A stretch of DNA of 63,926 nt, the filler included, from Intoshia linei (Eukaryota > Animalia > Orthonectida), in the NCBI GenBank assembly GCA_001642005.1. It is 8 parts of 8 records of this genome, joined end to end, with 100 filler letters (N's around TTAATTAATTAA, not from the genome) between each part and the next. Parts side by side here need not be neighbours in the genome. Positions count along the whole stretch, not along the records: positions 35,229 to 45,175 come from LWCA01001323.1; 7 more parts are not named here. One strand, given 5' to 3'. The notes beneath the pieces are model-generated. The model was not told the DNA's origin. It did not search any database and saw only the letters and a program-made list of their open reading frames with translations. Of this stretch, positions 22,046 to 60,836 are shown one piece after another; position 1 is the first letter of the stretch; the number at the start of each line of letters is the position of its first letter. The position numbers and the translations under genes were made by a program.

Positions 22046-25000
22046 TATAAAGGAAACATTTTATCGCCAAATTTACTCCATGATTCCAAACCACCGACAA
22101 TGTTGATAGCTTTAAAACTCAAATTTAATGAATTTAAAAATCTTGCAGCAATTCTTGATGCATTTCCACGTCGGCAAATTATGTACACTACATTTTATTT
22201 TTAATTTATAAAATTTTATTACTTTTATCTTTATCCTTTATTTGTTCAATTTTTTCTTGTTTCATTTTCAATAAATCTCCGAGAAAGATGTCTAAATGTA
22301 TAACATGACGCAAGATTTAAAAATTTTAATTTTTTAATTAAATACTTTTAGATTTTTCAATGCGGCAAATTAGGTATTCGTTTGGTGGACGAACGTCGAT
22401 AATGATATCGTCGTTATTATTTTTTATATATTGCTAAATTTATTTACAATTGAATATTTAGTATAAACTTGAACAGATATGTTGAAATCATCATCAATTG
22501 TGGGGATAGGTTCCTAAATGTACATTGTACAATGATTTAAGTTTGATTAAATTGAGTTTATATACGATTAAAATTTACACATTGACAGAGAGAAGTGTAG
22601 TCGATTTTGAGGGGTTCTGGTGATGAACAAGAATTGCAGAGATTGCTACGCTTTCGCAAATTAATTTTACGAAAACTCATTAGCATTGAATCAAATAAAA
22701 GCATTTGTTCATGCAAAACTTCTACATAAAAATGTATATAAATAAATTTGATTAACAATTTACCTCCCATTCCTGTACACATCTTTATAACTTCTAGGGC
22801 TTGTAACATGCCGATTATACAAGGTACTAAATTTTTAATTAAATTTGTAAGGTAACTTTCTACTAACTTTATAACTAACTACGCCTATTACTGTCTTAAA
22901 TAAACAGACATACATTTTTAACTAAATTACTTTATATAAGAACTAGCTTGACTGATGTACTACGTACAAACAGCACCTAGCTCTGCTGAGGGTATACCCA
23001 AATAATAAATTTATGTTGAAAATTTAATTTAAAAATCCTATTATTCACTATTATCAATCATTTAAAGGAGTGGTTCCCAAACTTGTTTCAGGTGGAACCA
23101 TCATATCACATTACTTTTTGTTTTACATTACATTCTTTAAAGTGAATTATTCCATCTTAATTTTTTGTTTGTTAACATTTGCGTAAAGGAATTTTAAAAA
23201 CAATTTTTTATCCCATTTTTTTAATTTATTAGACGTAAATGTGTATAATAATAAAAATAAAGTAAAAACAGTTCAATCCTAAAAATTGTCATAAATAGCA
23301 TAAATTCCAGAAAAAATATAATTATAAAAATCCTAAAAATTGTCATAAATAGCATAAATTCCAGAAAAAATAAAATTATAAACTATTTTGTTATTTTGAG
23401 TGTGATGATATATATTCAGAGTCAATTTAATAAATTTGACGATATATATTCAGTGTCAATTTAATAAATTTGTTGATATAAATACAAAATGAGATATTAA
23501 AACTCGTTTTTGACAAGAAATATGATGATTTCTGAGGTTAAAATATTTTCTATAGGTAAATTGGAATAAACTATATCAGACTAATCTCTTTTCATTATAG
23601 GATCGTTAATTAATTAATAATTTGCGAATAAAAAATGGACGTTCATTTCGGAAATTGGTATTTTTTTTATTATGTTGACTAGAAATGGACGTTGGAATTT
23701 ATTTTTCATTTTTGAATATAATTAGTAATTTGGGTTTTGACCAAGATATCGCAACTTTGGAAGAGTGACATTTATCTTAATTTATGTACCGGAAAAACTG
23801 GATTAGATTGTTTTTAAATTTAATAAACTCAGTTTCCTAAATATAGTGTTACACATGCACGTTTTTATTAATTTTTACTTTACAAATCAATATTTTTTAT
23901 CCAAACAAGTAATAATGAATATTTTAAAATTTGCATAATATAATAATATTTTATAAATTAATAGATTTGAATTTTACCAACACCGAGAACTCCAGCACTA
24001 GCACAGGTCTCATTTCTATCTATTTTTCTAACCGGATGTATACATCGAAAACAAGGTGAATTTTGATAATTATACACCGTCAACTAAAATGATTGATCAA
24101 CATCTATATAAATAAAAAACATTCAAACCCTTTTACCTGTCCGTATAAACTTAACGCAGCACCAGATACAATTGGCTTTGCCAACGAAACACAAATATCA
24201 TTCAATACATATCTCGCTATTAAATTGTCTGTCGCATCAATAATTACATCATAACTATTAAGAAATTACTAATAATTAAAATATGAATACTTTTTGAATA
24301 TATTAATAGATTCGGCATCACAATGAGTTAGTTTCATGTTGTGTTTAATGATATTAATAGAAGAATTTAGTCTAAAAGGTTTAAATATAATGTCGTAGTC
24401 ATCATTCTTTAGACAGGGTTGCAAATCTCAGGCAAGTAGATCTTTCTTTGGATGTGATAATTAAAAAATTTACCTTTCCAAATTCGAACATAGAGAGTCT
24501 GTCTTTAATTCACCGATATTTACTTCAGAATGGAAAATTTGACGATGTAAATTAGATAATTCTACGATATCATAATCGAATACTCCAATTGTACCTAATT
24601 TATGTATACAATTTTTTGGATTAAAATGTCAAATCAAAAATATTATATCATTCGACAGCAAATTAAATGGGTCTCATTTTATATATGCTTAGTTTGAAAT
24701 TTTAAAAATGGAATAGTTCAAATGTACATGTAACGGATTGTTAATCAAAATAGTCAACAAAACATGGTAAGCCCATCAACGGAATTACAAACATAGAAAT
24801 CCATATAAATTTGATAGTTTTTAATAAATATAAATTTAATATTTTATTATATACATAAGATTGACCCCTTAATTTACTTTTTTCGTTAGATTAGTACAGT
24901 GGTTCCCAAAATTTTTCCACCATGGACCACTTGTCACAGAAAAAAATCTCCTTAATCCTGAACACGTCACTAAGATAACATTTTAATTTTTTTATTATAT

Positions 25001-27118: not shown

Positions 27119-30100
27119 TGTAATGTTTAGATGATATAAATATCTTAGATATAGGTTTATTCACAATAAAATATCTTTTAGACGATAATAGGATATAGTG
27201 TTGATATAGTAACATTAAGTTTAACATAACATCATTACACCTTCGCCCCAAGATATTACAAGGTGTAATCTTGTAATCTTAAAGGTTTCTTGAGTACGTT
27301 TTGGTCGCTGTTTGAAAAGAGGGAGGTGTTTTTCATTTATTGGGAGATTCGGAATATAATTTGAATTGTGGTGAGTGAGATTTTTGATCCTAAGGTTATG
27401 GTTTGCTTTATGCTTTGTAATGTTTGTCTATCAAAATTTGAATTAATATGCATTTCATATCCTAAAACAATAGAAGCAGGAGTTTGACCAGTTTTAGATG
27501 AAATAGTAGATCTCATAGTCATTAAAACATTGAAGTAGATTGTCCCAGTCATTATCTGAATCAAGACATCTAAAACACTCACGAATTGTACGAATTCGTC
27601 TTTCAACTACGCCATTTTGCCAATGTTGATATGGATGATAGTGGTGTTTTTTTATCCCAAACATTTCGCATGATTCAATTACTATTTTACTTTCCAACTG
27701 TTTTCCACAATCAAAGTGCATTTCAGATGGTGGGCCGTAGCGGCTAATAATATTTTTTAAAATGGCTTTTACAACAGAATATATACCGTAATTTCACTAA
27801 CAGCCTCGCATTCAACCCACCCTGAGTAATGATCATACATTACAATTACGTATTTATTTAATTGACTTGTTTCTTTCAATGGTCCCATTATATCATTATT
27901 GTTATCATTATGTTGCCATAATTGATTGAAATAAATAGATGTGACAATTTTGAAAGGATTAAATTTGCTATGATTCCTATTTTTTGATATATTGCATTGA
28001 TGGCATTTAGCAACATATTCTTTTACATCTCGGTACATGTATCTCCAAAAGTAATTTTTTTTTATATTGGCGTAAGTAGCATTAATACCAGGATGGACAA
28101 AAGCTTTCGAATCATGATAATATTTTATAACTATTTTTATAGCAGAATCAGAAACTAAAATCAACTTTTCATTATTTTTAACATAATATAGTGTTTCATT
28201 AACATTGGAAGTGAGGAATACATTTGTCTAATTTTCCCCCGTTGAATGTCATTTAGGCCGACAAACTTTATCGCTCAAGTAGAGTTATAATAACGAGATA
28301 AAACATCCGCGGTAAAGTTGAATTTTCCAGGTTTATAACATATTTCGTAATCTAATTTATCCAAATACAATACCCATCGAACTAACTCACTGAGAATATT
28401 TTTGGATGTTCTCATATAAACTAATGGATTGTGATCAGTATATATCTTAGTATGAAGACCACTGATATATCTCTTAAATTTATGACATGCTTTAACAATA
28501 GCCAAAAATTCTTTTTTTGTAGTACTGTCGTTTTTCTCAGTGTCAGTTAATTTATTGCTATAATACTCGATAACTCTACCATTTTGTAGCAAGACAGCTC
28601 CAATTCCAACATTAGCGGCATCTGTTTCGATAATAAAAGCTAAATTTTTCTCTGGAATAGTGAGTAAAAGTGCAGATTTTAATGATTTCTTTAGTGCAGT
28701 AAACGATTTTTCCTGTTCTTCATTCCAATGGAATTTAACATTGTTTTTCAATAACTTGGTCATCGGTTCTAAAATTTCTGTGAAGTGATTTATGAACCTC
28801 CAATCAAACACAAAAGAACACATACCTAAAAAACTGCGTAACTTTTTTTGGTTGTAGGTTTGATAATTAAATTAATAGTATCAGTTTTTGAGGGATCAAT
28901 TTTGATTCCGTTAGAGTTAACCATATGACCTAATATTTTTATTTCAGTTTTACCTATCATACATTTACTTGGTTTGACAGTTAAATTTGCTTTTCGTAAT
29001 GCGAACAATACATTGTTTAAATCTATCTTATGTTCTTTAACAGAATTTAAAGCTATAATGATGTCATCTAAGTAAACAATTACATTATTTATGCCTTTTA
29101 AAACTTTGTCCATAACACGTTGACATGTCACCGGTGCATTAGACAATCCTTAAGGCATAACGTTATATTGGTAAAATTTGTCTTCAAATGATGTAGAAAA
29201 TGCAGTTTTCCAACGATCTGATTTTTTTAAAGGAATTTGCCAAAATCAAGAATATCTGTTTATTTCCAAGAAAATCAATGCATTCCTTTAAATCAGGTGC
29301 AGGATATCTATCCTTAATAATTGTCCTGTTCAATTCTCTAAAATCTATAACCATTCTATAAGAACCATTTTTTGTTTTTACTAAAAAATATCATGAATTA
29401 AAACTACTAACACTGGGTTCGATTACATTCATTTTTAACGCATTATCTATAATTTCACAATGATTATCACGTTGGTTGATTGATATTGGAAATGGCTTTG
29501 CACTTTATAATATAGTACTAGGGTCTAATGATATGGAATTTTCATGTTTTAGCAAGACCCATATTATCACAAATAACATCTGGGTACATAGAAATAACAG
29601 AATTAACATAATTATTAGAATCAAAATTTTTATTTTTAATAGATCGATTAATGTTTATCAGTTTCAATCCAATGGCATCTGGGCATCCTATGATATTTTG
29701 AGTATTTGTAACATAACATTTCATTGAATCTAAGCCGTTTATAAGATATACTACCGTCTCATAAAATTTTAATTTTGTTCCATCTGCAGAAAGAAGGATG
29801 TTATTACTAGGTATTATAGGTACATTTTTAAATTTTTTTAACGAATTCTTATTTATAAAATTTACATGAGATTCAGAATCAATGATAAATAATAAAATTA
29901 CATTGAACTCATCATTTATAAATTCAAGAGGTTGTTCAATTTCACCAGATGTTTGTTTGTAAACTGCCCTTATCTGTTTGTTAGGCATCAATTTTCGATT
30001 CTCTAATCTGCAATATTTGGCTAAATGTCCTGTTTTATTGCAATTATGACATTGTAAATTTGTGTTATCATTGTAATTATTGAATATAAAATTAATTTTG

Positions 30101-30704
30101 GATGCAATTATTTAATATTTCTTTAGATCAAGTGAATCATTTGTACTTAATTCAGTTTCAATAGCCGCATTATTAATTCCAAATAGCAATTGGTCTTGAA
30201 TGCGTTCATCAATATCAATAAACTTACATTTGTTCGCATGTATATATAATCTGGACATAAATGTAGACGCTGATTCATAATTATGCCTAATGCATTGTTG
30301 AAATTTCTTTCTATTTGAGGAAATATTTTTTGACTTCCATGAAGTAGATTCTTTTTTATAACTACTAAAGGTTTTTACTTCTGAATTCTTTAGGCGATTC
30401 CGCGCCACTTTGCCAATACTTAATTTGAGAAGAGCTATTTTTTCACTTCTTCAATTTGGTCTTGGGTCAGCAAGTAAAGGTAAACTGTTCAATCCTATCG
30501 CATGAGTCAATATTGAAATTTCCCGAATCATTAATGCATGTGGGTAAATTCATTGAAAACTTTTCCATGGTTTAAAAATATTTTGTAATGTTTAGACAAT
30601 ATAAATATCTTAGATATAGGTTTATTCACAATAAAATATCTTTAAGACGATAATAGGATATATTGTTGCTATAGTAACATTAAGTTTAACATAACATCAT
30701 TACA
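27119..30704 (-). mobile_element. Full-length decayed Ty3/gypsy LTR retrotransposon (Mag-like)
   Basis: 121-bp LTRs 27119-27239 and 30584-30704 (TG...CA, 5 mismatches), 5-bp TSD AGTAT, polypurine tract GGGGCGAAGG next to the 3' LTR; frameshifted gag (IQDQLLFGIN, CCHC-like knuckle), protease (IIDSES), RT (YLDD), RNase H (TDAANVGIGAVLLQ) and integrase (HPG...CHQC, NGVVER). Confidence 0.95.
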
Positions 30705-32305: not shown

Positions 32306-33769
32306 TTAAAACAAAAACCCAATTACACATATTTTTGCAACATTGCATAATAATAAAATACCAAGTAAATAATCGCCAGCTTTCATTCCACAACAATCAG
32401 CTATGGAATTAACATCAACTTTACCAATAGTCTCAGTCCATTGTTGTTCACTAAATACCAACTCAAATCCATAGGATGCATCCTGTCGAAAAAGCCGTAT
32501 ATTTTTAATGTAGGCAGTATTATCCGTCATTTGACTATCGACAGATTCAGTGACATTATTTGGATGGAGTACATTTTTAGACTCATCCGTAGATTGTGCA
32601 GATACAACATTATCATTAGATTCCTTGTCTTTATCATCAACATCATTTGTTTCGTGAATTTTAATGGTTGTTACAGATTTTCTAGCATACGGAATGGCTC
32701 CTTGACCAACGACATAAACTTTGACATCATCTTGAACTAGATTTACACTAGATGCTTGATTTGATGAGTTTTCATTAATTTTAACATTGTTTAAGCCATT
32801 AGTATCCTCAACAGGTACTTTAGTTTTATTACCCTTAACAATGGAAATAAGTTTATTAAATTTATTCTTATCAATCGATAAATTTTCTGGGAAACGTGAT
32901 TTGGAAGGATATTCACTGCAATATCCGTACAACCTCTCTATAGTGAAATTAAAAAAATGAAGGTACTGTAAAGTAGATAAATCACAAACAGAAAAATCTA
33001 CAGAATTTTCAACTGTATTCATTTCGTTAATTAAGACAGTATGTTTCATTTTGTCTGTATATTTATCTCGAACCTTTAAAAGAGAATAAAAATGTTTTAA
33101 GCCACTAATTTGAGCAGGTGAATTTTCTTCAATATGTGTAACAATCATTTTTTTAGTGTGAACTCGAAATCCGTATCCTTCATAAGAATCAATTTTGTCC
33201 AAAGTCAACTTTTCAATGTTGTAGGTAAAATCGCAATTTCCATATATCCCATATGGAAAATAATCTTGATTTACTGATTCCAAGTTTTGAACAAGTTGAT
33301 TAGAATACTTGTTTGCTAAAATAACAATCACAAATAAAAATATTATAATATATGTTACCTAAAATGTTTTCAATATTGGTACTATATTTCTTTAGAAACA
33401 GCAAAAATTCTGGTACAATACCAGTATCCAGCGCTAAAATAATTAGACTTTTAGTCTTTTTTATTTTTTCCACTACGTCTTGATATTTATCAAAAACTAC
33501 GTTGACACCATTGACGTGCAATACAAACTGTCCAGTAAATAAATGGGATCTAGCAGCCGGTGAGTCAGGGATAATTGATTCAACAATTTGAGTAAATCGA
33601 AGTGATGTAAATTTTAAATTAAAACCATAATTTTCATTACTATCACTTCTCTCCAAGTAATGTAGAGAACTTTTGGTAATGAAATATCTAAATTGTTATA
33701 CATTTCACATAAAAAACATCACCACCTGTATTTACTAAGAATGGATTCATCTTGTTTTTGTTTTTTCAT
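32306..33769 (-). CDS. Multi-PDZ scaffold protein (NHERF/PDZK1-like); 3' end uncertain
   Basis: Three PDZ carboxylate loops (NYGFNL, GYGFRV, SYGFEL) with SPAARSHL / SPAQISGL / SIADCCGMKAGD; short introns near 33690-33725 and 33316-33359. Confidence 0.78.
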
Positions 33770-35849: not shown

Positions 35850-37514
35850 AATTTATTACATTGTAGAAATAAATGTGTGTAATACAATCTTTTTATGTTT
35901 TGGAACTATCGTCATTCACTTTAATTTCTTAATATTTTCATTAAAATTTATATTTATGAAAAATAAATTTATATTCATGACAAACTCTGTATTTAAATTA
36001 AATATTATAAATATATGCTTTATTGCGTGAAAACATCAAATTAAATTAAAATTATACATCAAAATGAATAATCTTCATCTATAAAATCAACATGATATAA
36101 ACGACGAAATATATCTAGAAGATATAGGAAATATGGATTTATAGCATCTTGAGCATGACGATGATTTGATAGATCAAGTTAAAGAGTTAAAAGGTCTCAC
36201 CCCAAAATTCCGACGTAGAAAAAATGTTCAGAACCATCTTCAAAAATTCTCCTGAAAAGAAAATAAATACCAATATTATAATGGTACAGAATAATAATCA
36301 ACGTGAATTAGAGTAGAACAAATATGACTATGCCAAATTATTATTAAGGCGTATATTGATAAATGTGAAGATCAGATTAAAGAAGTTGAACATCTTCTCA
36401 CAACTGGATAATTATGATATTACCTATGAATTACTAACAGCACAGCCTAGATTTCCTTGGGTAACTCTTGATCCTAAGGTCTCTAACCAAGTACGCCTCA
36501 ATAGTGTCTTGGGAGGATAATATCTCCTTTACCAACATATGGTTCAGAAAATAAACCATTATCTTCGACATTCTAAAGCAACAGATAAGAATATAGCAGA
36601 TGACAAATTGATGACCTGGCTGATTACCAACGATTATCTCAAAATTATGGATGCATTGGATTCAGTACTATTATGAAGTAGAAGACTAGTATGAAGAAAC
36701 ATACACAAGCATATGCAATTATTATGTCCCTCAACTGGTATTTAGGAAATTCAACTAGTGTGTTGTTCGACCACCACGATTATCATCGCAACACAACCAA
36801 GCGGCATTAGCTCAATTAGACAAAGCACGTTGTGCTGACGTTGCAAAATATTACGTCACGGTAAAGAATGTACGCACATATACATTAAATGGTCCAACTG
36901 CCACACCATTACAGTATCGCCACCATATTCAACGGAAGTAGTTGACAAAGAATACCAAGCCTTACAATTTCTTAATGGAACGAAATATTTAAAATCAATA
37001 TGAAATCTAGTTTTATCTGATCTTTGTTTTGACCAGAAATAATTTTTTTTTATATTATTCGTTTCTAGTAAGAACTTGACCTAAAGATTTTGATTAAGTC
37101 TCTGAAATTTATCAAACAATGTATGTTAGGGTCAATGGGAAGATGAAGATTCACTGTATTCATTGGGTAACAACTATATCTTCATTATATCCCACAGCCT
37201 TTATAACATAACTATCATTAGTTACAGTTATAAAAATTATATCTACGACAAAATTTTTTATTTATAGGGGGAGTATATCGGAGTTAGTCGTAACTACACT
37301 CCTTCCTGTTATAAATCAAATTTCATCAAAAGATATTTTTCGATATTATTACATTCAATTTGTTCTACTTCATTTCATAATATATAGTTCTAGTTACCCT
37401 AATTACTTTGTTTCTTATTAAACTTATGAAAGTTACTTATGTTATGTTAAGTTACTTATGTTATGTTAAGTTACTTATTACTTATGAAATCTTATTTTTC
37501 TAATTATTTGTTAA

Positions 37515-38160
37515 TGTGGGGGAAGACCGACAGTATCAAAAAAGATACTAGCTCAAGGAGATAACCAAATTATATGCTTAACTTACAAAAGTCCAAGTAG
37601 ATTAGATAATGATTCATATGAACAAAAGACTAAATCAATAAAATTGAATGTCAAGACCATTATGCAATCGATAAAGAATGGAGCTTGTAAGTTAGATTTG
37701 CTAATAAAAGCAGATGAAACATAATGTTCCACTAACTTTCTAATATATGGAAAATATCATTTGTTCAGGGGTAGAATATTATGTCCTGAGTCAAAAACGA
37801 GTTTCAAGAGTCGGCTGTTTTTAAAATGACATGAAAATTAATATTTCAAATACAATTTATTCAATTGGTGCCGCCGCCTTACTATTGCTCAACATTCTTT
37901 ATTTTACCAAAGATCAATAGATCTTTTTTTATTATACGTAAATTCTTCACTTAGGCAAATATTGTTTTATAATCCTTCATTGATGGGGCCTAGCCTTATA
38001 TATTTAAAACATTGGAGTACATATCCAAGCACAGCCAAGAATAACAAATTTTAAATGAAGATTCTATTTGTAAATCCAGGAATAGGAGGGATGGCCTTAA
38101 CTAGATTCTTAATTCGGCAATTTCCGGATGGAATAACTGAATCACTCATTTTACGGTTCA
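37515..38160 (+). pseudogene. Endogenous viral element: rhabdovirus-like (Mononegavirales) L polymerase fragment
   Basis: KILAQGDNQIICLTY (GDNQ at 37557-37568), IMQSIKNGACKLDLLIKADET*CSTNFLIYGKYHLFRGRILCPESK, then after frameshifts VSRVGC, ISNTIYSIGAAALTIAQH and ILFVNPGIGGMALTRFLIRQFPDGITESL, in the same order as rhabdovirus L block III. Confidence 0.9.
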
Positions 38161-39214
38161 GAATGAAAGTTTCAAATTACGGAATTGGTGCCGTTCTCAG
38201 ACAAGGTTTACACACCATTCAATTTATCAGCAAATCTCTGAACGAAACTCGAATTAAATACTGCACCACTAACAACGAGTGGTTTGTGCAATCTTAAAAC
38301 TCAGAACATACTTACAAGGAAAAAAATTTACGGTAATCACAGACCACAAACCGTTAACAACAATTATGTCCTCGAATTCACTAACACATCAACAATTTAG
38401 ATACACTCAACTTCTCCAAGATTTTGACTTTGAAATAACATACAGACCTGGCAAACTTAATGTCACTGCCGACTATTTATCACGTAAACCTATCATCAAT
38501 GCAATTTCATTAACAAATAATAATCCATTTAAAATTAAGAAAAATCAATTTATGAATAAAACATTCTCTGAGTTAATTCGAAATATAAACTTTCAGGAAA
38601 ATTTAAACATTATGAACCCATTTCAATCTTTAAAAAACCAACTATGTATTTTAAAAGACAACCTTATCGGTAAAAAAATCAATAATAAAAACATAATACT
38701 TGTACACAAACTGTCAATATCCGAAATCATAAAATATTTTCATAATAATATCCAAAGCAACCATCCAGGCATTCAGAAAACCACCGAAAATATCAGGCAA
38801 CAGTACTATTGGTCTGGCATGTACAAAGATATAGCAACATGGATAATGAAATGTGAACGATGTAATTGTGGAAAATCTGGAAGAAAACTACATAACTTTC
38901 CGTTGAAGCAAATTAAAACGGAGAAATTCAATCAACTGTGGTAACGAGACTTCCTAGGCCCATTACAACAAAAGGATATGGGCAACAGATACATTTTGGT
39001 CATGATCGATCATTATAGTAACTGGGTGGAAGCAGTTCGAATGGCAAACATTACAGCTCAAAATTCAGTCGAAGCTGTTGTAAATAATATAATCTGTAGA
39101 TTTGGAATACCGAATCAAATACACACAGACAAAGCAACACAGTTCGAATTTCAATTATTTCAAGAAATTTGTCTCAAATGCGGAATATTAAAAACAAATA
39201 ACAATTATAATTAA
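38161..39214 (+). mobile_element. Ty3/gypsy pol fragment (RNase H + integrase), truncated at both ends
   Basis: SNYGIGAVLRQ, TDHKPL, YRPGKLNVTADYLSR, HPGIQKT...CERC, DFLGPL, IDHYSNWVEA, RFGIPNQIHTDKATQFE. Confidence 0.92.
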
Positions 39215-39261
39215 AAATAAAAAGGTTTATAATTTTTTAAAAGAGTATAAATTAAGTTATA

Positions 39262-39594
39262 ATGAAAACCGAAAATAAAGAAAAAAACAAGGAACATAAA
39301 GGAATCAGTTCATTATTGGCAGGAATAGGGGTATCTCGAGACTTTCAAAAAGGAGCAGATGCACGATTAAAAATATGGTATGATCAAGGAATTACCCCAG
39401 GGTTCAAGGAGGAAAATGGAAAAAGAGTTTACGACGAAGCGGGAAGCATTAAGTTAATAATTCCTCCTTTAGACTCATTAGCGTTGCCATATCATGAAAA
39501 GCTTTATCAAAGTAAAATCGAAATGGACTTAAAATACACTAAAAACTCCTCAGAGACAATCCCTCAATATCTCAAAATCTCAGAGACAAAATAG
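39262..39594 (+). CDS. Intronless orphan ORF (110 aa), origin unknown
   Basis: Open frame with ATG, more GC-rich than flanks, directly after the broken integrase. Confidence 0.35.
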   Translation: MKTENKEKNKEHKGISSLLAGIGVSRDFQKGADARLKIWYDQGITPGFKEENGKRVYDEAGSIKLIIPPLDSLALPYHEKLYQSKIEMDLKYTKNSSETIPQYLKISETK

Positions 39595-39639
39595 ATCCCT
39601 TAATTGTGGCTAGCTATATCTATTTACTCTCAAAAACGA

Positions 39640-39801
39640 AATTTGGCGACCTCGTTTGCTTCATAAAATGAATGATGACGATTATGATAGACGCATAGAA
39701 TTTTGTGAATAGTACAGCAACAACTCTATGAGAACATTAAAATTAGGAATAAAATAATTTGGACCAACGAAGTAAAGTTTAAGTTGAATGGCCACGTTAA
39801 C
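39640..39801 (+). mobile_element. mariner (rosa/DD41D-like) transposase fragment
   Basis: MNDDDYDRRIEFCE*...IIWTNEVKFKLNGHVN resembles the WSDEAxFxLNGxVN motif. Confidence 0.7.
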
Positions 39802-39909
39802 TTTGAAAACTTTGAAGATAAAATGGAATTCTTTTCATGCTTTTGTTTTGGATCATTAATGTACAATATTAAATAAAAGCTGTATTATTTTAAATTTTGT
39901 GTTCGTTAT

Positions 39910-40020
39910 TGTAATGATGTTGTTAAACTTACTGTTACTATAACAACAATATCCTATTATCGTCTTAAAGATATTTTATTGTGAATAAACCTATATCTAA
40001 GATATTTATATCATCTAAAC
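39910..40020 (+). mobile_element. Solo LTR of the 27119-30704 gypsy family, 3' tip replaced by a hAT end
   Basis: Near-identical to the reverse complement of the 121-bp LTR, ends at ...ATCTAAAC then CAGGGGTCGC. Confidence 0.9.
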
Positions 40021-40445
40021 CAGGGGTCGCAAGAAAACTTATTAACACTGTTATTTTTTTAAACTTGAAGTAAAAAATTTAAATGTATCTACAAATAAAT
40101 TTACATTTACATTAAAATTTTTATAAATTATCACTCATTTGAATATCTCGTTTATCATTTATAAAATTTAAATAATTACTTTATTACTAAAACGGATCTA
40201 TAAAAACGTTAATATATCAATGAAAACATTGGCTAACAAAACAAAAAACCGAAAAAGAAGATACAGTAAATCATTTTTACAATATGGATTTACAACATCA
40301 ATTTAAAATAATGAAGATCAACCTCTTTGTGTAGTATGCAATGAAATTTTAGTAAACGAAAGTATGAAGCCCTCAAAACTAAAAAGACATTTGAATTCAA
40401 AGCATGCTATGTACGCTGATAAACCTATTGAATTTTTTGAAATAA
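40021..40445 (+). mobile_element. hAT (Buster/ZBED5-like) transposon 5' end with BED finger
   Basis: CAGGGGTCGC terminus; KRRYSKSFLQYGFT...PLCVVCNEILVNESMKPSKLKRHLNSKH...KPIEFF. Confidence 0.88.
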
Positions 40446-40872
40446 AATTTTTTTATAAAATGAACAATTCAGTGAATACAACTGTAATATTAATAAACTA
40501 CAGTTCGATTTAGATCTAGTTTATAGCTACGAGAAAGTATATTCAAAATATAATTTTCTGTATACTTAATTAATATACAATTTCATATTAAGCGTTATCT
40601 TACTACAACAACTTTGTTAATATCAGTTTTATATTTATTAAAATCCTTTGCAATATTGGTAAAATTCGCCTGAAATATGTTTATAAAGTGAAGATTCGGT
40701 TCATTATTGATACATAATTGGTATTTTTAAGTATTTATTAAATTGGTACTGAATACATATCATCACATTGAAAATGATAAAATAGGTTTTTGTAATTTTA
40801 TTTTTTCTGGAATTTTTGCTATTTATGACAATTTTTCTCTAAGTACCCATGTCATTTATTTCTTTTTAATTC

Positions 40873-42076: not shown

Positions 42077-42625
42077 TGAGAAATGAAAATCAAAACGAGA
42101 GTGAATTGATGGGAGCAATAAATACAGGGTTTATATTGTTATGTATAAAGTTTTTAAATCTAATAGATTTAGTTCAATCACATCGGAGGACTGTAGTGCA
42201 TTTTACAGGTAAATGCTTAGTTACGTAGATCGAAGCTTGAACAGCGAGTGATTGCATAATAATAAAATATTTTGACATGTCAATAGAGATTGAATAAGAT
42301 TAAATTTTAAAACGGTGTGTTTAAAATTGAAAGCGGTATTAATAAATAATTTACATATTTACTCAAAGGGCCACTGGTTGCCAGCCCTGCTATAGTGTGT
42401 GACTAATATGAACATTAAAAAATGTTATCACAGAATTGTCAATGTAAAAGTTTAAAATTTTTAAAATAAAATATAAAGTATATATTTAAATCTCGATTAG
42501 TAAGATAGTGATATATTACAGTGCTGGCAATGTATCGAAATATTTTTATCGATTTCCAGCACTAATCACAAACCAATTATTAACTAATCGGTTGAAAATT
42601 ACGCAAAAAATTAAAAATTATTAAC

Positions 42626-44586
42626 CTTTTATTGGTAATTTCTTTAATGCAGACAACAACGTCCTTAATAGATTTAATTGAAACGGTAATTTTTCTGCAA
42701 CCAGGTGATTTTAAAATTTTTTGGATTAATGACATTGTTTCCGCCAATATATTCTGCGGACACATATCTATTTTTGTAACAACAATAATTAAAGGTAAAT
42801 CGAGGGCTAATATTAAACTTAAATGTTCTTTAGTCATTCCTATTATACCAGCGTTAGCACCAATCTACATAAACAACTATAAAAAATAAAAGTACAAAAA
42901 ATAATTAATAATAAATAATTATAACTATTCAGATAAAATTTAAAAGTATACCACCAAGACACTATGGTGCGGTTTATTTGACGTCATACCAAAAACTGTC
43001 GTTTTAAAATACTTTTCATGTCCGGCCAAATCAATAAAAGTTATTATCTAAAATAATAATTAAATAAAAAGTCAATAGTTTCACAGATGCAACCAGAAAA
43101 TGAAAAATAGACCAAAAAAATTACTAACCGATGCAGTGTCATATAGCCCTACCCAGATCTATAATGCTCTTGAATTGATGTAATATATTTTAAATTTAAC
43201 ACACAAAATAGTTGATATTGAAGATATAATTTTTTAATGCTTAATTTCAAAAAATAAGGTCTCAATTTTAGAAAAATTTCTTCAAACCCCTCGATACCCT
43301 CATTTTTATACAGAATATTTGTATTAAGGAAAATTATCATGTTAATATATTGTTTAATTTTCTTTTTATAATTTTAAGGACTCGATTAAATAAAACGATG
43401 CAATAAAATAATATACCTTTGACGAATTAATTCGAACATTTTTCCAATCCACCTTTCCTTTAATTGGTTTTACATAGTCACAATCCTCGTTGAACCCCAA
43501 AATGTAATTAGAAACACTACTAGTTCTCCCACTTGTTTTTTCGTGTAAATGCTGATGCAAACGTCCTCGGGTTAAACCCCTTCCGTCGTCTAATTGGTCC
43601 AACGTCAACACACCTAGAAATGATGTTTTTCCAGCGTCCACGTTTCCAAGAATGGCTATTCTAATATTAAAAAATAATACAAACAATAAATATCGCACTA
43701 ATGATAAAACTTTTTTGAAAATAATTTTTTAATAATTACAATTGTTTATCATCTTTTGAACGATTACTCCTATGTAACATCCGATTCGATTTTGTAACAT
43801 ATTGATTAATACATTGTTTTTAAACATTTTTGGTAAATTTACCGACTTTTACAAAATTTTTCACAAAATTTTTGTCAAAAAGTGAAAATATTCAGATCAT
43901 TCAATTTTTTATTTATGTATATATATATATTTTTTATCGTAATTATGTAATTGCTTTCTTATTAGTTTCATAAATTAGATTTATAATTTTATAAAGATTC
44001 GTTTTCAGTGTTCCATACCCTTCAAAGCTTTGCAGTGAACAGTATATATTTTAATATTGTAAAGCAAAACACAAAAAACAAATTTTAACCATTCTAATCA
44101 ACGGTTACATATATACAAAAGCAAAAAATAACTTACCTAACCTCGATATATATGCTATTGATCATATTTTTTCGTATTAAAAAATGTTGAATTTCATTTC
44201 CATCTTCCAATTTTTCAGCAAGTATTAATGTGGATTTACACTTTAAAATTGTACAAATTTTTTCCAAAGTTTCTAATGATAATTCCATTTGTGATGCTGT
44301 TATACCACGTTCTTTTGATTTTCCTAAAAATTTAAAATTAACAAAATAAAAGAATGTAATCAAGAATATAAAATTAAAAAACCTTCCAATCCAATAGTCA
44401 AAATACATTCTCCACTTCTAATGTATATTTTTTCTTCAATATCATTACACAACAAATCCATTACAGGCTGAGAAGGTTCTACATATACTTCCTAATAAAA
44501 TACATTTAAATAAAATGTAGATTTACCTTTCTGTCAATATTGTAGTCAATTTTTTCTTCATTTTTTATCAATTCTTTTTCGTTCAT
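42626..44586 (-). CDS. GTPBP1: GTP-binding protein 1 (translational GTPase), 5' exons only
   Basis: [77 protein letters not shown]; ends at a GT donor; domain II/III exons not seen. Confidence 0.92.
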
Positions 44587-47609: not shown

Positions 47610-48533
47610 TGTTTAAGGGTCAAAAACCCCTGTTGTCCCTCTTTTTGAAAATTAAACAAGTTGGAGAATTTAAAAAAATATATACGCTGATGCGGATTTT
47701 AAAATCCTAAACAAAAAAATTTACAGGTGGTAGAGTTGTATCATGTTACCACACATAAAAAATTTCAATCCGAATAAGTGACGACTTCACGGTCAAAAAA
47801 GCATTTTAGTATTCATATATTTTTTTTCCGAAATATTTTATTAAAACAAAAAATATGAAATAATTAACGGTCCGAAAATTTAAAAAAAGGATTATTCTGA
47901 TAGAGCTTATTCCAGTTGATATAAATACAAAATTTCAACCCCAGAAATCTACGTATTCTCGGTAAAAAATAATTTTTAATATATTATCAACCAATATTTT
48001 TCAAATATTTCGATTAAAATAAAAAATTGAAAATGACAAAATAGGTTTTTATAATTTTATTTTACTGGACTTTATGCTATTTATGACAATTTTTAGGATT
48101 GGACTGTTTTTACTTTATTTTTAATATTATACACACATTTTGTCTAATAAAATTGGACTGTTTTTACTTTATTTTTAATATTATACACACATTCTGTCTA
48201 ATAAAATTAAAAAGTTTTAACTTTATTTTTAATATTATACACACATTCTGTCTAATAAATTAAAAAAATGGGATAATTGTTTTTAAAATTCTTTACGCTA
48301 GTGTTAACTAAAAAAATTAAAATGGAATAATTCACTTTAAAGTAAAAAGTAATGTGATATGACGGTTCCACCTGAAACAAAATTTGGGACTACTCTTTTA
48401 AAAAATTGATAATAGTTAATAATAGGATTTTTAAATTAGATTTTCAACGTGAATTTATTTTTTTGGTATAATAAAAGAGTGCCCTCTGCAGAGCTAGGTG
48501 CTGTTTGTACATAGTACAGAACAGCCAAGCTAG
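47610..48533 (+). mobile_element. Non-autonomous Helitron-like element, 3' part
   Basis: Ends with hairpin GCTGTTTGTAC-ATA-GTACAGAACAGC then CTAG|T; similar 3' ends at about 10814, 13275, 20116, 59369 and 22942 (minus); about 53-bp tandem triplication at 48095-48262. Confidence 0.8.
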
Positions 48534-57964: not shown

Positions 57965-60162
57965 TTAAAATGAGAATAAACTATTTTGAATATAAATACA
58001 AACATAAATACAACCGAGAATGTAAACAGTAAAATATATATAATGAGAATGATATATATATTTCGTTTTGAAAAAATATATTTTAGACTTGGTAAATTCT
58101 TTAGTAGTAGAAAGATTACAGTATTTTTGATAATGTACATTTGGATCAATTTTTTCATAAGCCGAATAATTTTGAGAAACATTAACATTTCGTATTACAC
58201 ATTTATTACTAGATAAATCTCTTTCAAATCTATGAGAGCAGATGTAATCTGTATAACAATCACGCATGTTCTTCTTTTGCATACGTAATGTATTAAAATT
58301 AACAAAGCAAGGCTCGTCACGTGTATCGTGATATCCAGTAAAAATATTTAAATAAGATGAAGTATATATAAAATCATTCTTATTACAAAACGACATTTTA
58401 AAATTTGAATTCATAGTAATAATTGTATTATTTTTATAATTAAAAAACACCAAATGTAAAATTAAATCGTCATCAATGCGATAGTAGAAATATTCCGATA
58501 ATTTCATGTCTTGGGTACCTAACATAGAGTACCAGCTTCGTGCACCATCTACCGAAAAATAAATGTGAAAATCTGAATAGGTTATCAGTGCCCCTTTATT
58601 TGATTGAAATTTTTCATTTGACGTCAAATCTCGAAATATATACATGACATTATACGTTTCCTCGTTAAATGGAGTGTACCAATTTTTAGTTCCATAGTTT
58701 ATATACAATTTCCATTTTTTTACAGTTTTTTCATTTGAATATGTTATTAATGTAATTTCTAGTTCAAACATTTCTAAAACTGTATTGATACAAATTTTCT
58801 TGTTTTTATTGTTAAATGGTAAAAAATTATCGCCGTTGTTATAAGATATAAAATTTTGGCATTTACCAGTGACTATTATCACTATGGTGTAATATCGGTA
58901 GGTATTTACATATATATCTACACTGTTAGTAAGTATTATTGGTAAGTTGATTGGTTTGAAATTTTTACAGTTTTTGTCACTGATATACAATCTATTGTTA
59001 GTTACATATTTTGCTCCAAATAGTAAATGTGCCAGTTTATGTCTTTTTAATGTCTGCTGTTGCTAAATTATATTTATAATTTTATATTTAACAATTATGA
59101 TACATTTGTGTATTTAATTATTTTTATTTAACGTGAATGTTAACAAAACAAAATTAATATGGAATAATTCCCTTTAAAGTAAAAAGTAATGTGATATGAT
59201 GGTTTCACCTGAAAATAATTTGGGAACCACTCATTTAAAGGATTGATAATAGTGAATATAGGATTTTTAAATTAGATTTTCAACTTGAATTTATTTTTTT
59301 GATATAAAAAAAATGTGCCGTCGGCAGAACTAGGTTCTGTTTGTACGTAGTACATAACAGTCAACCTAGTTATAAATATAAATCACCTCAACAAATATTA
59401 TTGTACGATGTCGTAATTTGCGAGAATAAATCAAAATAAATTGTTTGAAATTGACATATCTTTCATCCTGATCATCAATATTAATATTGTATATTTTATC
59501 ATGAAAAACTGCCACTTAATTAAAATTTTTAGTTACAGCAAACATTACGTCATCCAAAAATTGAGAATGAATTAAACTATTTTTGTTTTCCAGTAAAACT
59601 TTAAATTGATAGGTAAAAGCATTCAACGAGTATATCTTGTCATTGGTTTCAATAAAAATATATCTGGAGCTAATTGAATTCCAATAGGCTCGGTAGTCTT
59701 CTGACAAATTGTTTATTTCTATAATATTATCCTTCTTGACAATATGCAACACATACGATTGAACACAAAGAACACCTTCCTTGTTGAAAATGAAATATTT
59801 TGTAAACATCATATTTCTATACTTACTAATTTCCTTTAAATATAATTTATTTAAATATAACAACATGTATGTTGAATCGACAATATGTTTACGAAATGAG
59901 AAAAGTACAATATTACCTCTATGAACTACAAATAGTTCCGAAACAAAAGAAAACTCTTTCCATTTAGATAAGTTAATTTTTTTATTAAATAAATAATCAT
60001 TTGCTTTTTCGTCCAAATAACCGTAACATTACTTATTGTAATGAATTTAGTCCCATTGTCATGTAATCCATGCATCATTTCAGTGGACGTTTTAACCAAA
60101 TTGCATTTTACATTGTAAAAGTTGATTAAAATAAATATATGAAAGATTTGTAGTAATATCAT
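57965..60162 (-). CDS. Divergent VPS10/sortilin-like beta-propeller protein (possibly pseudogene)
   Basis: Signal-peptide-like start; Asp-box motifs SYNNGDNF and SVDGARSW; Cys-rich module FCNKNDF...PCF...DCY; apparent frameshift near 60010; Helitron end in intron. Confidence 0.55.
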
Positions 60163-60584: not shown

Positions 60585-60836
60585 CAATTTGCATCAATAG
60601 AATTTAAACAATTTTTACAATCTATGGATATTCAATATTGTTTTACTGCTAATTATCATCCACAAAGTAACGGGCAAGTGGAAAATTTTAATAAAACTTT
60701 AAAGCAAAGATTGAAAATTGCTGTTCAAGATGGTATGAGCATTAGTGAAGCAGTTACAACAATTCTAGGCAATTATCGAATGTCACCACATACTATTACT
60801 GGGTACCCATCTATAGAACTACTACATGGAACAGCT
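60585..60836 (+). mobile_element. Gypsy integrase fragment
   Basis: QFASIEFKQFL...YHPQSNGQVENFNKTLK...YRMSPHTITG. Confidence 0.88.

Follow-up and report, generated by a model that had tools for sequence, protein, structure and literature searches.

A decayed fragment of a rhabdovirus-like polymerase gene (L) is joined directly to a decayed fragment of a Ty3/gypsy pol gene in the orthonectid Intoshia linei, a tiny marine parasite. The join, at ~38147, lies in a stretch of 63,926 nucleotides, filler included, which was analysed as a whole and is referred to here as the window. It represents a known type of element, virus joined to retrotransposon, in a new host from a little-studied phylum. We favour, with confidence near the midpoint of the scale, an origin in which the gypsy reverse transcriptase switched from gypsy RNA to viral L mRNA. 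As read from its sequence, the locus is a dead, single-locus fossil.

The L and gypsy fragments and their surroundings

The L (RdRp) fragment (37542–38147, + strand) reaches from motif C (QGDNQ) as far as the FPD..TESL motif and corresponds to positions 705–912 of PF00946 (E 9e-25). It matches residues 722–923 of rabies L (E 4.6e-28) and 706–909 of VSV L (E 2.6e-20), with the next L structures at E 0.0036 or weaker among the 11 sequences listed. These matches, together with a quick tree that took in no named non-rhabdoviral outgroup, put the fragment nearer to rhabdoviruses than to the remaining mononegaviruses. The nearest outside full-length L proteins are ~39% identical to it. The fragment is decayed host DNA, located on a contig with a host GTPase gene, and is interrupted by stops at 37722, 37822 (in a shifted frame) and 38052 and by frame shifts near 37797 and 37877. 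No other L pieces were found elsewhere in the window. The two in-frame stops (37722–37724 and 38052–38054) are TAA codons at positions where the sister copies have Trp, each requiring two G-to-A steps, whereas in the gypsy piece four Trp codons have stayed intact. This pattern hints that the L part may be older than the gypsy part. The gene model A3Q56_06911 (P0116) matches three stretches of the contig and is probably a false gene, in which part of 36200–37000 is spliced to the L piece. The 36200–37000 region (+ strand) is a decayed, coding-like stretch with a GC content of 0.325 that matches neither L nor gypsy homologs, and the ORFs at 36317–37000 have no Pfam match.

The gypsy fragment (38147–39190, + strand) comprises RNase H, an H2C2 zinc finger and the first part of the integrase core (rve). 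Its domains are arranged with RNase H preceding integrase, and its 113 homologs have the order RT-RH-IN. Its defects consist of a frame shift within 38162–38171, a second near 38274–38297 and a stop at 38942. The far end is cut internally at ~39190, since 39187 is the end point of 46 of the 113 alignments and none extends beyond 39190. Lacking LTRs, PBS, PPT, TSD, gag and RT of its own, the piece is a fragment rather than an element. Close paralogs are absent among 113 longer and five near-length homologs, the best reaching 49–50% over a fifth of the query. The window also contains a complete, decayed gypsy element of 3.6 kb (27119–30704, − strand), with 121-bp LTRs (TGTAAT...ATTACA, 96% alike), a 5-bp TSD (ATACT), a PPT-like tract and, with disrupted frames, the zinc knuckle of gag, RT, RNase H and integrase. 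It was rejected as the parent of the fragment, as the two share 35–40% protein identity and no DNA match. A further integrase-core scrap (60585–60836, + strand) belongs to a third gypsy family; its 5′ side is cut internally against AT-rich DNA, and it runs into an assembly gap. The L and gypsy parts are alike in GC content (0.31 and 0.32, respectively), in a window that is AT-rich overall (~25% GC).

Left of L, no 5′ LTR, PBS or gag was recognized, and right of the integrase there is no PPT or 3′ LTR. The loss of all of these parts indicates that later deletions certainly acted at the locus. The scores for a degenerate LTR left of L and for an LTR pair around the unit were reached by 37 and 16 of 300 shuffles, respectively, so neither is supported. 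Neither of the purine tracts at 37266 and 37518 has an LTR behind it. The former, AGGGGGAG at 37266–37273 (region ~37260–37320), could be a scrap of the end of another LTR element; a second contig from sequencing run X1 covers 37286. A 19-nt tandem repeat (37430–37478, no strand assigned) left of L is 47 nt shorter in X1, and no LTR or gag was recognized there. On the right, an LTR copy of the 27119–30704 family (39910–40020, + strand) was rejected as the 3′ LTR of the chimera, as it belongs to another family, has no PPT before it and is separated from the chimera by 720 nt of unrelated sequence. This third copy of that LTR is cut short of its final bases by a sequence that starts with CAGGGGT and leads to a Spin-doc-type zinc finger (40307–40510). 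We take this zinc-finger scrap to be hAT-like, and another neighbouring scrap is presumably Tc1-like.

All five recognizable mobile pieces between 35.5 and 40.5 kb are on the + strand, one of them a zinc-finger match that scores below its cut-off. The bias is weak, with p ~0.125 when the pieces are treated as four units. Host genes on the − strand, encoding a PDZ protein (32306–33695) and the GTPase (42580–43728), lie on either side of the mobile pieces, and read-through of the GTPase gene would run antisense to all five. An ORF of 112 codons after the integrase break (39256–39594, + strand), partly covered by run X3, has no Pfam match and no usable atlas match, and ORFs of 365 codons (57965–59062, − strand) and 170 codons (59516–60028, − strand) have no Pfam match. 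The segment at 40640–40836 is a very high-copy repeat, with a summed contig depth of ~11,500 in X1 and 1,550 in run X2, and is also found at 23335–23435 and 48026–48094.

Sequence and reading frames at the join

The join falls inside an 80-codon ORF that runs from stop to stop at 38055–38297 (+ strand), with the L motif first and gypsy RNase H after it. The first-pass annotation described this ORF as a chimera passing from viral L into gypsy, and the Pfam matches (Mononeg_RNA_pol at residues 9–32, RT_RNaseH at residues 36–76) bear this out. It further presented the fusion as in-frame, with a few residues between the two parts and the junction just at the TDAS motif; the frame analysis below contradicts all three, the open frame being accidental.

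On the viral side, tblastn gave 96 alignments of L homologs extending beyond 38050, of which 72 stop at 38147. The L motif is present in 86 of 136 L proteins, where the residues following it are S or T (69), F (79) and W (68). The in-frame reading of the window, I-L-R, scores −16.3 bits. For gypsy, a profile was built from the five residues that precede xDAS in 62 of 118 gypsy homologs; the anchor pattern required an aliphatic residue at one of the five columns, which introduces a mild circularity. On this profile, codons 38147–38161 score 8.7 bits when read in a shifted frame, comparable to the homolog median of 8.5, with a chance of 3.3e-4 per position (125,985 window peptides). The in-frame reading of the same bases scores −17.4 bits, and the five codons upstream of 38147 score −20.1 bits. 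An 8-mer that includes the decayed xDAS codons scores −1.6 bits, compared to 18–26 bits in gypsy homologs. Thus, the gypsy sequence starts at ~38147, about five codons upstream of TDAS, in a frame that differs from that of L.

The first strand of gypsy RNase H (H-F-T-V-Q) and the decayed xDAS codons together occupy 38147–38174 (+ strand), in a frame shifted relative to L. The supposed linker residues are, on the profile scores, gypsy sequence in another frame, namely the strand that precedes the TDAS motif. The chimeric ORF exists because a one-base shift occurred later within the decayed TDAS codons (38162–38171), so that its frame continuity, to judge from the codons involved, is a by-product of decay. 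Its bounds are likewise accidental, being a stop inside the L fossil and a frame shift inside RNase H. The ORF has no predicted function and is of no interest in itself, and an in-frame functional chimera is ruled out by the frame scores on the gypsy profile.

The zone of the break spans 38145–38154 (+ strand), as the L match extends to 38147, the gypsy-frame match starts at ~38147, and an alternative S-F-Y reading would allow an overlap of 0–8 nt. The S-F-Y reading (38146–38154) scores 6.3 bits (P 8e-4 per position) and could mean a virus/gypsy overlap of 6–8 nt. We did not accept it as microhomology, since it requires one more frame shift and is for the most part a consequence of the gypsy codons. 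The join itself is free of LTR, TSD and filler bases. The absence of an LTR or TSD, to which the first-pass annotation had pointed, thus holds, but it is not diagnostic of the mechanism because the gypsy piece is internally cut at 39190, the scrap at 60585 is cut as well, and there is no flanking LTR pair. Its claim of near-nucleotide resolution was too strong, given that the run contigs show no second copy of this gypsy family at 90% identity or higher and that the nearest outside L proteins are ~39% identical.

Sister L fragments and the origin of the join

A profile search with this part of L alone gave 128 matches, in which the sister copies were read as predicted proteins. Three more I. 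linei gene models contain L pieces, P0117, P0118 and P0181, which are 73% (96 columns), 81% (107 columns) and 75% (76 columns) identical to the window piece, respectively. The quick tree contained 87 rows, consisting of 83 proteins of at least 1800 residues and the four Intoshia pieces, with shorter matches left out. The four pieces form one clade (SH-aLRT 99) within a part of the tree occupied by named rhabdoviruses; its neighbours are two L proteins, unnamed and on long branches (89). The L piece of P0117 (A3Q56_08643, on a 954-nt contig) stops a few codons short of the window break and shares with the window L a three-residue gap preceding the GG-M motif; the DNA of this piece might contain the window's join or a different one.

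Minus-strand synthesis in LTR retrotransposons starts at the 3′ end and passes through integrase before it reaches RNase H. A jump from the minus strand onto plus-sense L RNA would therefore give, in the plus sense, L followed by RH-IN, matching the order at this locus. Both parts are on the + strand, L lies upstream of gypsy RH-IN, and the two are joined directly with no filler. We propose that the gypsy reverse transcriptase copied its own RNA from the 3′ end through integrase and, at the beginning of RNase H, changed template to plus-sense viral L mRNA, which would have generated a hybrid cDNA. This cDNA likely entered the germ line and may have been integrated via end joining, or via another switch that has left no traces. 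Deletions at a later stage would have removed the integrase end, the PPT and the LTRs. The first-pass annotation had also read the locus as the footprint of a template switch; the strand, the order and the filler-free join fit that reading, while its arguments from the open frame and from the missing LTR and TSD fail.

A close rival, to which we give substantial weight, is that the join is secondary. According to this explanation, a separate gypsy copy inserted in or near an older L insertion, itself one of several copies of a single fossil, and a later deletion removed the LTR-gag-protease-RT portion of gypsy together with the rest of L. The state of the contig is in keeping with this scenario, as every mobile piece in it is internally cut, including the far end of the chimera's own gypsy part. 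As the local patch is entirely on one strand, the polarity argument for template switching is weakened. However, with other gypsy coding sequence making up ~3.5 kb of a window of 63.3 kb, a deletion at random is expected to end in same-strand gypsy coding sequence in only ~3% of cases. The L part also appears to be more heavily disabled than the gypsy part (5 disablements in 606 nt versus 3 in 1044 nt), a point in favour of this rival, although the difference is not significant (p 0.13).

The sister pieces bear on this rival in both directions. The differences between the sisters and the window L amount to 11 of 75 conserved columns and 57 of 205 variable columns, a ratio of 0.53 that derives from three comparisons, all sharing the window piece. 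In 55 pairs of full-length L proteins, the corresponding ratio has a median of 0.10 and never exceeds 0.44. Against these values, the ratio of 0.53 suggests that much of the sister divergence is neutral decay after insertion, so that the copies would have diverged largely as fossils, which favours a secondary join. The pattern of divergence fits a single old insertion that was copied just as well as it fits multiple captures. In addition, the tail of P0118 matches positions 997–1034 of P0119, 56–93 residues past the break motif. This match is weak (HMM 10.5 bits) but exceeds all of 1000 shuffles (842 scored, best 9.8). Thus, the L piece of P0118 appears to run past the break, which argues that the join is not common to the sister copies and again favours a secondary origin. 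P0181, in contrast, provides a second pairing of L with integrase. In it, an L piece (PF00946 746–823) is combined with a zinc finger of integrase (PF17921, E 1.8e-5, 25.2 bits against a cut-off of 25.5) that belongs to another family than the one at this locus; being a predicted gene model, it shows a common strand of L and integrase rather than their spacing in the DNA. This pairing argues against a chance join and would support template switching.

Template switching, our preferred reading, could be extended to a broader scenario, in which rhabdoviral L was captured repeatedly by different gypsy lineages, at this locus and in P0181, and the products were arranged in one-strand arrays antisense to host-gene read-through. 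Such arrays would form a mosquito-style virus archive in a strongly reduced spiralian parasite and would be the first sign of a rhabdovirus lineage of orthonectids. We regard this extension as rather unlikely.

An improbable third explanation is co-insertion, in which end joining at a double-strand break linked a free viral cDNA to a free fragment of gypsy cDNA, with no template switch. It would be compatible with the lack of LTR ends on either side, with a possible overlap of 0–8 nt and with the ability of viral fragments to integrate without LTR sequence, as described in the available part of one study (PMC8048955). However, it leaves the common strand and order unexplained, and filler bases are absent.

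The join itself is supported by reads. It lies inside a gap-free contig (35229–45175), with no assembly gap near it. A 2490-nt contig of run X1 (Logan) bridges 37485–39884 with 15 differing letters, 0 gaps and a depth of 14.5, and none of the 14 differences listed falls between 37835 and 38251. As this contig is gap-free over the join, both the join and the frame shifts are present in reads; the check for spanning reads proposed in the first-pass annotation is thereby answered by one contig, from a run that may be the same sample as the assembly. A search for further copies of the chimera, also proposed there, came out negative in the X1 contigs: the depth of X1 is flat over 37592–39501, which implies no second copy of the L or gypsy part at 90% identity or higher among them. 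Run X2, from another study, covers 37940–38127 with 0 differences at a depth of 4, and 38600–38778 and 38986–39145 on the gypsy side at depths of 2.3 and 2.6, with no piece across the join. The L piece is thus carried by DNA-type contigs of two studies (library kind guessed or unrecorded), and no RNA dataset is listed as carrying the region. An assembly artefact, in which unrelated reads or contigs were joined, can be dismissed as highly improbable: although the assembly is fragmented, with gap linkers about every 5–14 kb, the bridging contig may come from the assembly's own sample, and X2 has pieces on either side but none spanning, the X1 contig, with its flat depth, 0 gaps and 15 differences, was built separately from reads, and the X2 pieces on both sides are of similarly low depth.

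Comparison with known virus–retrotransposon joins

Should the join be primary, the capture of RNA viruses by gypsy, which is best documented in mosquitoes, would extend to Orthonectida, and the locus would illustrate, at base level, the polarity that a jump onto mRNA is predicted to leave. In both cases, the L piece records a distinct rhabdovirus lineage, ~39% identical to the nearest full-length L, that once infected an orthonectid germ line. Recombinants of LCMV and IAP, a hybrid DNA of virus and LTR retrotransposon, were reportedly described by Geuking et al. in 2009.

We found no report of a rhabdovirus-like EVE in Intoshia, in a literature whose coverage is poor for subscription papers, possibly including the genome paper. 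Genes for RdRPs of viral families have been noted in the predicted proteome of I. linei by a search that included PF00946 and were called probable transfers from viruses, in the accessible part of that work (PMC6396948). The portion available of another study mentions Orthonectida for its tree alone (10.1101/2023.11.03.565523).

The closest parallel is provided by the rhabdoviral EVEs of Aedes aegypti located by Ty3/gypsy elements. According to the sections available, 543 of 614 LTR elements in Aag2 have the same polarity as the nearest EVE, rhabdoviral EVEs are enriched beside Ty3/gypsy, and L is under-represented among them (10.1101/127498). Gypsy enrichment, duplication and ectopic recombination are described for Aedes EVEs in the portion seen of a second study (10.1101/128637). 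The contiguity of EVEs and LTR elements in Aedes has also been argued, in the part available, to result from piRNA clusters being enriched in LTR elements (PMC8048955). The Intoshia locus resembles these EVEs, as far as they are described there, in sharing the polarity of the adjacent gypsy, in lying in a patch of mobile debris and in having several related copies per genome (10.1101/127498; 10.1101/128637; PMC8048955). It differs in that the host is an orthonectid (Spiralia) rather than an arthropod and that the piece derives from L. Compared to the CFAV EVE of Aag2, as presented in the part available, the Intoshia join has neither the flanking LTR nor the gag of that EVE (PMC6797480).

The hybrid episomes formed by copy choice between SINV and Ty3/gypsy, described in the accessible text as not homology-driven, are similar to the Intoshia join in that RNA-virus sequence is joined directly to the internal part of a retrotransposon, with no need for long homology (PMC6797480). 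Those hybrids, as reported in the same portion (PMC6797480), are fresh products of infected cells with both parents known, whereas the Intoshia join is an old fossil whose two parents are both missing.
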